Shown here in pieces: positions 1 through 3,090 of a DNA stretch of 43,098 nt (positions are counted from its first letter, which is position 1; every line of letters begins with the position of its first letter). The stretch is from a virus. Taxonomy: Duplodnaviria; Heunggongvirae; Uroviricota; Caudoviricetes. The position numbers and the translations under genes are program-made. The notes under the pieces were generated by a model. It was given only the letters and a program-made list of their open reading frames with translations, did no database searches and had not been told where the DNA came from. The DNA lies in the IMG/VR virus record IMGVR_UViG_2541047775_000007; one strand, written 5' to 3'.

Positions 1-981
1 ATGAGTCATCAACTTACCTTCGCCGACAGTGAATTCAGCAGTAAGCGCCGTCAGACCAGAAAAGAGATTTTCTTGTCCCGCATGGAGCAGATTCTGCCAT
101 GGCAAAACATGGTGGAAGTCATCGAGCCGTTTTACCCCAAGGCTGGTAATGGCCGGCGACCTTATCCGCTGGAAACCATGCTACGCATTCACTGCATGCA
201 GCATTGGTACAACCTGAGCGATGGCGCGATGGAAGATGCTCTGTACGAAATCGCCTCCATGCGTCTGTTTGCCCGGTTATCCCTGGATAGCGCCTTGCCT
301 GACCGCACCACCATCATGAATTTCCGCCACCTGCTGGAGCAGCATCAACTGGCCCGCCAATTGTTCAAGACCATCAATCGCTGGCTGGCCGAAGCAGGCG
401 TCATGATGACTCAAGGCACCTTGGTCGATGCCACCATCATTGAGGCACCCAGCTCGACCAAGAACAAAGAGCAGCAACGCGATCCGGAGATGCATCAGAC
501 CAAGAAAGGCAATCAGTGGCACTTTGGCATGAAGGCCCACATTGGTGTCGATGCCAAGAGTGGCCTGACCCACAGCCTGGTCACCACCGCGGCCAACGAG
601 CATGACCTCAATCAGCTGGGTAATCTGCTGCATGGAGAGGAGCAATTTGTCTCAGCCGATGCCGGCTACCAAGGGGCGCCACAGCGCGAGGAGCTGGCCG
701 AGGTGGATGTGGACTGGCTGATCGCCGAGCGCCCCGGCAAGGTAAGAACCTTGAAACAGCATCCACGCAAGAACAAAACGGCCATCAACATCGAATCCAT
801 GAAAGCCAGCATCCGGGCCAAGGTGGAGCACCCATTTCGCATCATCAAGCGACAGTTCGGCTTCGTGAAAGCCAGATACAAGGGGTTGCTGAAAAACGAT
901 AACCAACTGGCGATGTTATTCACGCTGGCCAACCTGTTTCGGGCGGACCAAATGATACGTCAGTGGGAGAGATCTCACTAA
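1..981 (+). CDS. insH: IS5 family transposase (InsH-type, 326 aa)
   Basis: Translation [18 protein letters not shown]... is recognisable as E. coli IS5 InsH; complete ORF. Confidence 0.93.
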
Positions 982-1127
982 AAACTGGGGATAACGCCTT
1001 AAATGGCGAAGAAACGGTCTAAATAGGCTGATTCAAGGCATTTACGGGAGAAAAAATCGGCTCAAACATGAAGAAATGAAATGACTGAGTCAGCCGAGAA
1101 GAATTTCCCCGCTTATTCGCACCTTCC
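1..1127 (+). mobile_element. IS5 element, partial (left end lies upstream of window start); right terminal inverted repeat ends at 1127 (cttattcgcaccttcc)
   Basis: Full-length IS5 transposase ORF from base 1; recognisable IS5 right end and 16-bp terminal IR at 1112-1127; followed by TTAG, consistent with the 4-bp IS5 target site. Confidence 0.9.
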
Positions 1128-1607
1128 TTAGCGTCATTCACTCTGGCAGGATGCCAGTCAAATGCTGATGATCATGCCGCCGATGTTTATCAAACCGATC
1201 AACTGAATACCAAACAAGAAACTAAAACCGTTAATATTATTTCCATTCTTCCCGCAAAAGTTGCCGTAGACAACTCCCAAAATAAACGAAACGCACAAGC
1301 CTTCGGCGCGCTTATTGGTGCAGTCGCTGGCGGTGTTATTGGCCACAACGTCGGGTCTGGCAGCAATTCCGGAACGACGGCAGGTGCAGTTGGCGGCGGA
1401 GCTGTTGGCGCGGCAGCGGGTTCTATGGTGAATGATAAAACCTTAGTGGAAGGTGTTTCTTTAACGTATAAGGAAGGCACCAAAGTGTATACCTCCACCC
1501 AGGTGGGTAAAGAGTGCCAGTTTACGACAGGTTTAGCCGTTGTTATTACCACGACGTATAACGAAACGCGTATTCAGCCAAATACGAAATGTCCTGAAAA
1601 GAGCTAA
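1128..1607 (+). pseudogene. SlyB-like glycine-zipper outer-membrane lipoprotein, 5' end separated by the IS5 insertion
   Basis: Frame is open from inside the IS5 end with no in-frame start; lipobox LAGC at 1143-1154; glycine-zipper GAVAGGVIGHNVG...GAVGGGAVGAAAG resembles SlyB/Pcp lipoproteins; native start and signal peptide must lie upstream of IS5. Confidence 0.5.
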
Positions 1608-1622
1608 TGATCAGGAGGAGTC

Positions 1623-2162
1623 ATGAAGAAAGTTTTTCTTTGCGCCATCTTAGCCTCCTTAAGCTATCCGGCTATCGCCTCATCATTGCAGGATCAACTC
1701 TCTGCTGTCGCAGAAGCGGAACAGCAAGGTAAAAATGAAGAGCAAAGGCAGCATGACGAATGGATCGCGGAGCGCAACAGGGAAATCCAGCAAGAGAAGC
1801 AACGTCGCGCAAACGCCCAGGCCGCCGCTAACAAAAGAGCGGCAACGGCAGCGGCAAATAAGAAAGCTCGTCAGGATAAACTGGATGCCGAAGCCACTGC
1901 GGACAAAAAACGCGATCAAAGTTATGAAGATGAGCTACGCAGCTTAGAGATTCAGAAACAAAAACTGGCGCTGGCGAAAGAAGAAGCCCGCGTTAAGCGC
2001 GAAAACGAATTTATCGATCAGGAACTGAAGCACAAAGCTGCGCAAACCGATGTGGTGCAATCTGAAGCTGACGCAAACAGGAATATGACTGAGGGCGGTC
2101 GCGATCTGATGAAAAGCGTGGGCAAAGCAGAAGAGAACAAATCGGACAGCTGGTTTAACTAA
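1623..2162 (+). CDS. hypothetical secreted protein (signal peptide plus charged coiled-coil, 179 aa)
   Basis: Strong RBS caggaggagtc before ATG; N-terminal MKKVFLCAILASLSYPAIA signal peptide; K/E/A/Q-rich heptad-like body; terminator follows. Confidence 0.75.
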   Translation: MKKVFLCAILASLSYPAIASSLQDQLSAVAEAEQQGKNEEQRQHDEWIAERNREIQQEKQRRANAQAAANKRAATAAANKKARQDKLDAEATADKKRDQSYEDELRSLEIQKQKLALAKEEARVKRENEFIDQELKHKAAQTDVVQSEADANRNMTEGGRDLMKSVGKAEENKSDSWFN

Positions 2163-2209
2163 GCGATGTCAGTAACTTCAAGCCTATGATTCGTGAGTAT
2201 AATAAATAT

Positions 2210-2233
2210 CCTCCGGCATAGCCGGAGGTTTTT
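2210..2233 (+). terminator. rho-independent terminator (cctccggc-ata-gccggagg plus T5)
   Basis: Perfect 8-bp GC-rich stem followed by TTTTT directly after the 1623..2162 gene. Confidence 0.65.
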
Positions 2234-2239
2234 CAAATG

Positions 2240-2950
2240 CGCCTATAAGGCTCTCTTACCAGCCGCGCCCTAACAGGCGCACACGATCTGACATTTGCAT
2301 CCAACTTCGTTACTTACGGCCCGTAAACGGGCTGCCCGGATAGGGAATCGATAACTGCTCTCCCATTTTATCCTCTTCAAGCTGGTGCTTTATGTAATCC
2401 TGTATCTTCGCCGTGTTCTTACCCACTGTATCGACGTAGTACCCTCTGCACCAGAACTCCCTGTTCCTGTATTTGAATTTCAAATCACCAAACTGCTCGT
2501 AAAGCATCAGACTGCTTTTCCCTTTCAGATATCCCATAAACCCGGATACGCTCATTTTAGGCGGGATCTCCACAAGCATATGGATATGATCTGCACAGCA
2601 TTCAGCTTCCAGAATCCGTACGCTTTTCCACTCACACAGCTTTCTCAAAATACTGCCTATTGCTCTACGCTTCTCTCTGTAGAACACCTGTCTTCGGTAT
2701 TTTGGCGCAAAAACTATGTGATATTTACAGTTCCATCGGGTGTGCGCTAAGCTCTTTTCGTTCCCCATTGGGACCCCCTTTTGATTTCTTGTTTGACACT
2801 TGCAGTTGCCAGACCGCAAGGTGTTTTAACAAATCAAAAGGGGTTTTAATAACTGGCTCAAAGCTGAAAGCTTTCCGGAACCCCCAGCCTAGCTGGGGGT
2901 TTTCTGTGCACAAAAAACCCTCTGTAGTAACAGAGGGTTTTGTTCATTCA
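2240..2950 (-). mobile_element. IS200-like insertion sequence (boundaries approximate)
   Basis: Y1/HUH transposase ORF plus two strong hairpins upstream of it (acccccagc/gctgggggt near 2886-2908 and aaaccctctg/cagagggttt near 2908-2938), typical of the IS200 left-end structured region; ends not mapped precisely. Confidence 0.6.
2310..2768 (-). CDS. tnpA: IS200/IS605 family Y1 transposase TnpA (about 152 aa)
   Basis: Translation MGNEKSLAHTRWNCKYHIVFAPKYRR...HIHMLVEIPP...YIKHQLEEDK is recognisable as IS200 TnpA; ORF-track start at 2819 is probably an upstream extension. Confidence 0.88.
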   Translation of the reverse strand: MGNEKSLAHTRWNCKYHIVFAPKYRRQVFYREKRRAIGSILRKLCEWKSVRILEAECCADHIHMLVEIPPKMSVSGFMGYLKGKSSLMLYEQFGDLKFKYRNREFWCRGYYVDTVGKNTAKIQDYIKHQLEEDKMGEQLSIPYPGSPFTGRK

Positions 2951-3090
2951 TAGTGCAGGGTCAAATCATTCCCACTCAATTATTTACGATAACCATAACC
3001 AATTGAGTGATAACATTTTTCCAAATCTCAATTTTTATCGTACCGTTTTATATACCGTCACCGGAAATCAGTACCATGAAAAATGCCATG

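Follow-up and report, generated by a model that had tools for sequence, protein, structure and literature searches.

The stretch of DNA analysed here, hereafter the window, comprises 43,098 nucleotides of a tailed-phage record in the IMG/VR collection (IMGVR_UViG_2541047775_000007). Its left edge is, with high confidence, a segment of the Escherichia coli host chromosome adjoining a prophage and marked by three independent mobile-element events: the insertion sequence (IS) element IS5 within the lipoprotein gene yfgH, an IS200C element between yfgI and guaA, and a phiV10-type prophage at the 3′ end of guaA. The true end of the prophage lies at 2980/2981, so that window positions 1-2980 represent host DNA and two insertion sequences, not phage. 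In a search of the 5426 complete E. coli genomes in RefSeq that served as the reference set for all site counts, positions 1128-3600 were 99.5-99.9% identical to loci annotated as yfgH, yfgI, IS200C tnpA, a DUF2514 protein and a GH19 hydrolase.

The independence of the three events was observed directly across genomes: phage integration at guaA and the IS200C insertion each occur separately in other strains, and the IS5 insertion is specific to this strain. The order in which the elements arrived is something we can only infer. The locus is otherwise ordinary, every component belonging to a well-described family and the attachment (att) site having been established experimentally; the sole new item is the particular IS5::yfgH allele. 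Its relevance lies mostly in correct annotation, in that yfgH is a pseudogene here and neither yfgH nor yfgI should be counted as phage cargo.

The prophage boundary at guaA

To place the boundary, the phiV10 attP was aligned with the window junction, with the far junction in strain 118UI and with the unoccupied site of strain ME8067. This four-way comparison of attP, attB, attL and attR defined a 17-bp common core, AATCATTCCCACTCAAT, located at 2964-2980 on the Rz side of the prophage and setting the junction at 2980/2981. The core occurs once in the window (0.02 occurrences expected by chance) and falls within the interval 2950-3090, where a preliminary description of this DNA, made from the sequence alone, had predicted an attachment-site repeat. 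It is identical to the published attP/attB core attgagtgggaatgatt of vB_EcoP_ZX5, phiV10 and epsilon15, experimentally verified at the guaA 3′ end and positioned 190 bp 5′ of the integrase gene (PMC9782041). Uetakevirus prophages at guaA (phiV10, epsilon15, vB_EcoP_ZX5 and phiv142-3) share this 17-bp core and the same layout: the integrase flanks attP on one side, and the opposite flank carries the Rz-like spanin, GH19 endolysin and holins.

The host side of the junction retains the end of guaA. Positions 2966-2980, read on the minus strand as ATT GAG TGG GAA TGA, are the final four codons and the stop codon of the gene (IEWE*), now displaced. Next to them, on the same strand, lies the guaA intrinsic terminator (2912-2944; stem 2918-2940, T-run 2912-2917), with a folding energy of -18.3 kcal/mol (z = -5.1) and a stretch of six T after the stem. 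The same terminator is present in ME8067, which carries neither prophage nor IS200; in the window, the prophage separates it from guaA. A consensus terminator scan missed the structure at 2918-2940, a failure of the tool and not a feature of the biology. On the phage side, matches to phage records start at 2981, and a 110-bp attP arm (2981-3090), near-identical to the phiV10 attP, separates the core from the spanin gene.

As the window stops with the start codon of the integrase gene (43098), the second att copy is predicted approximately 190 bp outside it, with intact guaA beyond. The corresponding junction in strain 118UI contains the core 190 bp past the integrase start; guaA comes next and is annotated as intact, and downstream of guaA lies a phage-borne hairpin that shares its stem with the host guaA terminator. 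In the integrase-side arm of phiV10-type attP sequences (L007 4215-4306; L009 1716-1802), the guaA tail is likewise followed, about 50 bp on, by a terminator hairpin with the stem AACCCTCTGT/ACAGAGGGTT. The folding energy of this phage-borne terminator is -15.9 kcal/mol (z = -6.5). Since attP carries both the guaA tail and a terminator with the same stem, guaA regains a stop codon and a terminator after integration. In the proposed mechanism, a podovirus of the phiV10/epsilon15 type would use its P4-type tyrosine integrase to insert itself at the 17-bp core in the guaA 3′ end; guaA would stay intact at the far junction, and its former tail and terminator would remain at the near one (2912-2980).

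Short repeats are also present in the attP arms. The sequence ATACCGTCACC at 3052-3062 in the phage arm is a candidate arm-type integrase site, one of three copies: ATACCGTCA(CC) occurs three times in the phiV10 attP arms (L009 1621-1629, 1650-1660 and 1872-1882), twice directly and once inverted. The integrase contains an Arm-DNA-bind_3 domain, and the ATACCGTCA repeats may represent its arm-type binding sites.

Interruption of yfgH by IS5

The first 1127 nucleotides of the window, on the plus strand, constitute the right 1127 bp of the canonical 1195-bp IS5 element, identified by Pfam and NCBIfam matches and by identity to complete copies. Agreement was 1127/1127 with the copy in strain CUVET20-1573 (L006), 1124/1127 with the K-12-type copy and approximately 92% with ISKpn26. 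The transposase open reading frame (1-981, plus strand, 326 aa) matches Pfam DDE_Tnp_1 and DUF772 as well as the NCBIfam IS5 equivalog NF033581, the latter at 365 bits (cut-off 140). Complete IS5 copies in other genomes measure 1195 bp, are flanked by 4-bp duplications of CTAA or TTAG, and end in 16-bp terminal inverted repeats of the form GGAAGGTGCGAA(T/C)AAG. The right repeat, CTTATTCGCACCTTCC, is seen at 1112-1127 on the plus strand, as in the complete copies of L002, L005 and L006. Because the window opens at the transposase ATG, IS5 begins 68 bp to its left, and these left 68 bp, together with the 5′ piece of yfgH, lie outside.

Directly after the IS5 end, the window resumes yfgH at TTA GCG TCA. 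Alignment with the uninterrupted gene of strain CE0007a (L001), which reads ...gcaacgTTAGcgtca around the insertion point, placed the insertion at TTAG, comprising codon 14 and the first base of codon 15 of 172. The 5′ end of the CE0007a gene is GTG ATG AAA TTT AAA AAA TGT CTT CTG CCT GTG GCA ACG TTA GCG TCA TTC ACT CTG GCA GGA TGC; the insertion accordingly falls in the hydrophobic core of the signal peptide, eight codons before the cysteine of the lipobox LAGC (1143-1154, plus strand). The TTAG at 1128-1131 conforms to the YTAR target of IS5, equals the target in intact yfgH, and represents the right-hand copy of the expected 4-bp duplication, the left copy being outside the window. The preliminary description had proposed that IS5 splits the signal-peptide coding region of a SlyB-like lipoprotein gene, and the alignment bears this out. 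Comparison with uninterrupted loci, the check it had suggested, located both the IS5 target and the prophage att core.

The yfgH remnant (1128-1607, plus strand) comprises codons 14-172 and the stop. It matches Pfam Rick_17kDa_Anti (PF05433, glycine zipper 2TM) at 33.4 bits (cut-off 24.2), and its identity as YfgH, whose gene lies between yfgG and yfgI in the intact locus, is supported by this domain, the lipobox and 100% identity to annotated yfgH. Together with yfgI (1128-2162), it is identical at 1035/1035 positions to the intact locus in CE0007a (L001) and SY019 (L008). The lipoprotein frame does continue from within the IS5 end, as had been noted earlier, being open from 1089 (after a TGA at 1086-1088) through the end of the element and across 1128-1607. 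Codons 1-13 are missing, however, and no in-frame ATG, GTG or TTG occurs between 1089 and 1424, the first possible one lying at 1425; the window therefore carries a start-less yfgH remnant. An intact start codon within the IS5 end, which the preliminary description had named as the observation that would contradict disruption, was looked for, and there is none in this IS5.

Because the remnant has no start codon, YfgH is predicted not to be made in this strain, which could serve as a natural yfgH-null. Insertion of IS5 into the TTAG at codon 14 would disconnect the bulk of the gene from its promoter and first 13-14 codons, and a simple insertion would give a left junction of ...CTGCCTGTGGCAACGTTAG followed by GGAAGGTGCGAA. 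YfgH has been called SlyB-like (PMC11619404) and shares the glycine-zipper 2TM domain (PF05433) and lipobox with the SlyB (PCP) family of outer-membrane lipoproteins; it is nevertheless encoded by a paralogue, not by slyB, and is here 5′-truncated. Work cited in PMC11619404 associates the protein with the integrity of the outer membrane and yfgI mutants with sensitivity to DNA damage.

Downstream of the remnant, yfgI (1623-2162, plus strand) is intact and encodes a 179-aa DUF5384 protein (Pfam E = 9e-62), annotated as yfgI in all compared genomes and preceded by the ribosome-binding site AGGAGG at 1613-1618 on the same strand. As a downstream member of the yfgH operon, it would lose the operon promoter through the IS5 insertion. 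A promoter scan of 950-3150 returned no sigma-70-like site, a result of little weight, as the same scan missed the guaA terminator. Given the loss of the operon promoter and the lack of a promoter-like site downstream of IS5, yfgI expression probably depends on read-through from the element.

Insertional inactivation by IS5 is well known in E. coli, and the window shares with described cases the canonical element sequence, the 16-bp inverted repeat and the TTAG (YTAR) target. What differs is the allele at yfgH codon 14, seen here through its right junction and found in 0/5426 complete genomes. None of these genomes has IS5 at the yfgH TTAG site, and two have ISKpn26 there; the exact right-junction 31-mer had no match in three public contig collections (genome, viral and metagenome contigs).

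The two ISKpn26 cases are strains MSI001 (L004 2433-3640) and E5, in which this element, approximately 92% identical to IS5, occupies the same TTAG in the same orientation, with TTAG flanking it on both sides. One yfgH tetranucleotide has thus been hit in one orientation by IS5 in the window and by ISKpn26 in two genomes, raising the alternative that the signal-peptide TTAG is a true hot spot for the IS5 family, or that loss or alteration of YfgH is under selection. A rough count nonetheless argues for chance: with approximately 47 YTAR sites in two orientations within 3 kb and several independent IS5-family insertions, coincidence at one site has a likelihood of about 0.3. We therefore regard a hot spot or selection as improbable.

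Other strains carry IS5 elsewhere in the pdeF-guaA region (L002 3481-4675; L005 2433-3627; L006 2433-3627; L017 approximately 18077-19057), at sites in the yfgH-yfgI gap, in the pdeF-yfgG gap upstream of yfgG, and inside pdeF. A hot spot extending across pdeF-guaA was considered and rejected, since BLAST ranking favours genomes of this kind and the count seen fits chance.

A further alternative is that the IS5 end supplies a new start, so that a functional hybrid YfgH bearing a chimeric signal peptide is still made. The frame is indeed open for 13 codons within the IS5 end, and the related ISKpn26 at the same site has a right end that reads GAAATGACCTGC... and gives an in-frame ATG. As a result, NCBI's pipeline calls a 167-aa hybrid YfgH beginning MTCLFAPS-LASFTLAGC..., and translation from this ATG might produce a lipoprotein whose signal peptide is chimeric. 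No start of this kind exists in IS5 proper: the equivalent bases read GAATTTCCCCGC, no ATG, GTG or TTG occurs from the TGA at 1086 to 1425, and the CTG at 1143 is the only near-cognate codon before the lipobox. The scan of 950-3150, which returned no promoter-like site, adds weak evidence in the same direction. A functional hybrid protein is, on these grounds, very unlikely in this strain.

Several considerations count against our interpretation of the region as host chromosome bearing a prophage at guaA and an IS5 insertion that abolishes YfgH. The left IS5 end, the left TTAG and yfgH codons 1-14 lie outside the window, so that a simple insertion, as opposed to an IS5-mediated deletion or rearrangement, is something we infer. 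The attR lies outside as well, and its structure is taken by analogy from the close relative 118UI. Finally, a non-canonical start (CTG at 1143) or translation by read-through from IS5 may still yield some YfgH product.

IS200C and the status of yfgH and yfgI

IS200C occupies approximately 2201-2911 on the minus strand, within the host yfgI-guaA intergenic region. Its ends, uncertain by approximately 2 bp owing to flanking A runs, were set by comparing filled with empty sites (ME8067, HCP4S3_I4; L002, L003) and by the common ends of five other IS200C copies. The only gene of the element, tnpA (2310-2768, minus strand), encodes a 152-aa transposase matching Pfam Y1_Tnp (PF01797, E = 4e-38) and NCBIfam transpos_IS200 (NF033573, 147.7 bits; cut-off 55), with the HIH motif in ...ADHIHMLVEIP.... 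Folding identified subterminal hairpins, one at the right end (2210-2228) and a terminator hairpin at the left end (2879-2901), both on the minus strand. The latter corresponds to the IS200 left-end terminator published at nt 12-34, and the left-end anatomy is as described there (PMC4513863). The left-end RNA region, comprising the tnpA 5′ untranslated region (UTR) stem-loop and art200/STnc490 (2778-2901, minus strand), gave a full-length match to Rfam STnc490 (RF01405) at 146.4 bits (gathering score 56). The element has no terminal inverted repeats and no clear target duplication; the comparison of filled and empty sites fits the lack of a duplication, with a 2-bp ambiguity in the A run. Relative to known IS200 and IS200C elements (IS200/IS605 family, Y1 HUH), the window copy shares the 152-aa Y1 transposase, the left-end hairpin at approximately nt 12-34 and the 5′ UTR/art200 region, shows no notable difference, and is a fixed lineage marker at this site.

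The element lies outside the prophage, 53 bp from the att core, 69 bp from the prophage junction and 180 bp from the Rz stop at 3091. The interval between 2911 and that stop consists of 69 bp of host DNA, containing the guaA terminator and att core, and 110 bp of phage DNA. The preliminary description had placed an IS200-like element abutting the Rz end; strictly, the element does not abut Rz and lies wholly in host DNA. The hairpins at 2879-2901 and 2210-2228, whose assignment to phage DNA would have undermined the preliminary description, are internal to IS200, and a reading of the element as part of the phage DNA was rejected, as IS200C is in host DNA outside the att core.

IS200C is present at exactly the same site in 132/5426 complete genomes (2.4%), with or without the prophage. 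Co-occurrence of the two at this locus in many genomes could be taken to mean that IS200 arrived with the prophage or was targeted by it, and forms a functional part of the prophage edge. Strain SY019, however, has IS200C at the site and no prophage, and HCP4S3_I4 has the prophage and no IS200C. The element also lies 53 bp outside the core, and its position after a terminator T-run recurs at unrelated loci. A link with the prophage is thus highly improbable, and the IS200C insertion is an independent host-side event.

As a family rule, the left end of IS200/IS605 elements inserts 3′ of a specific tetra- or pentanucleotide (PMC5027513). The IS200C left end, read on the IS strand, lies directly 3′ of the T-run of the guaA terminator, just beyond which the element would have inserted by single-strand "peel and paste" transposition. 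The left ends of the five other IS200C copies, at unrelated E. coli loci (including L011-L014), are each directly 3′ of a G+C-rich hairpin. A T-run precedes the left end in the window and in four of these five copies, the fifth having ...CGTT, and at such sites (guaA, deoD, glcA) the element is co-oriented with the upstream gene. This small sample suggests that IS200C targets terminator T-runs. A search of the literature for an IS200 target sequence or terminator preference yielded only the general family rule. Both the position of IS200C after a terminator and the copy of the guaA terminator in attP are tidy examples of known principles, not new ones.

The bracketing of yfgH and yfgI by two insertion sequences had been described as a small IS-bracketed block. 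Both elements do flank the genes; the arrangement is a coincidence, because IS5 and IS200 are unrelated and cannot act together, and it forms no mechanistic unit. The physical bracketing is all that favours a composite mobile unit carrying yfgHI, and such a unit is practically out of the question: the two families are unrelated and use different chemistry (DDE versus Y1 HUH transposase), 132 genomes carry IS200C at its site but lack the IS5, one boundary of such a unit would fall within yfgH, and yfgHI was never found away from pdeF-guaA among the genomes examined. A composite transposon, which would need the same IS, or ISs that are cross-recognised, on both flanks of the cargo, was rejected: the two elements are distributed independently and arrived separately.

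The preliminary description had left undecided whether the two genes are prophage cargo in a Bor-like position or host genes. Prophage-free strains keep the gene order pdeF-yfgG-yfgH-yfgI-guaA-guaB. Because yfgH and yfgI are situated outside the att core and their neighbours in these strains are unchanged, they are core host genes, and the second of the two options holds. Delivery of the pair by the phage as morons has next to no probability, even though, as is common for Bor-type morons, they adjoin the lysis cassette and have a lipoprotein and a secreted protein as products: both genes are on the host side of the core at 2964-2980, they retain their neighbours in strains without the prophage, and phiV10-type phage genomes, with similarity beginning at 2981, lack them. 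The cargo reading was rejected on these three counts. The likeness to lambda Bor and other prophage-edge lipoprotein morons is limited to a position by the lysis genes and one lipoprotein product, whereas yfgH and yfgI are core chromosomal genes outside the prophage.

Genes and relatives of the prophage

By sequence comparison, the prophage is assigned to the phiV10-like Uetakevirus group of temperate podoviruses. It is 97-98% identical over 77-90% of 24.9 kb to HEMP4, phiv142-3 and phiV10, with a matching gene-by-gene layout, and nucleotide identity to Uetakevirus prophages is 97-98% over most of the structural and lysis region. The spanin genes are the last genes of the lysis cassette. The Rz-like i-spanin (DUF2514; 3091-3573, minus strand; Pfam E = 2e-41) corresponds to phiV10 p30, and an o-spanin lipoprotein gene with the lipobox LALAGC is embedded in it (3099-3374, minus strand; phiV10 p30a). 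Next to them lies a GH19 endolysin gene (3570-4199, minus strand; Pfam Glyco_hydro_19; phiV10 p29). At the other end of the prophage, a P4-type tyrosine integrase is encoded at 41851-43098 on the minus strand (Pfam Arm-DNA-bind_3 and Phage_integrase).

The tailspike region (window 4901-7573 versus L009 3868-7524) is mosaic relative to phiV10. The window encodes a 729-aa tailspike and small membrane-protein reading frames, whereas phiV10 has an O-acetyltransferase gene (oac), lacking in the window prophage, and an 875-aa tail fibre. These differences are the usual mosaicism of receptor-binding genes and are ordinary within the genus. Exact matches to the 729-aa tailspike are present in many contigs, and among the matches listed yfgH is uninterrupted, encoding 172 aa in two and called as 164 aa in the third.

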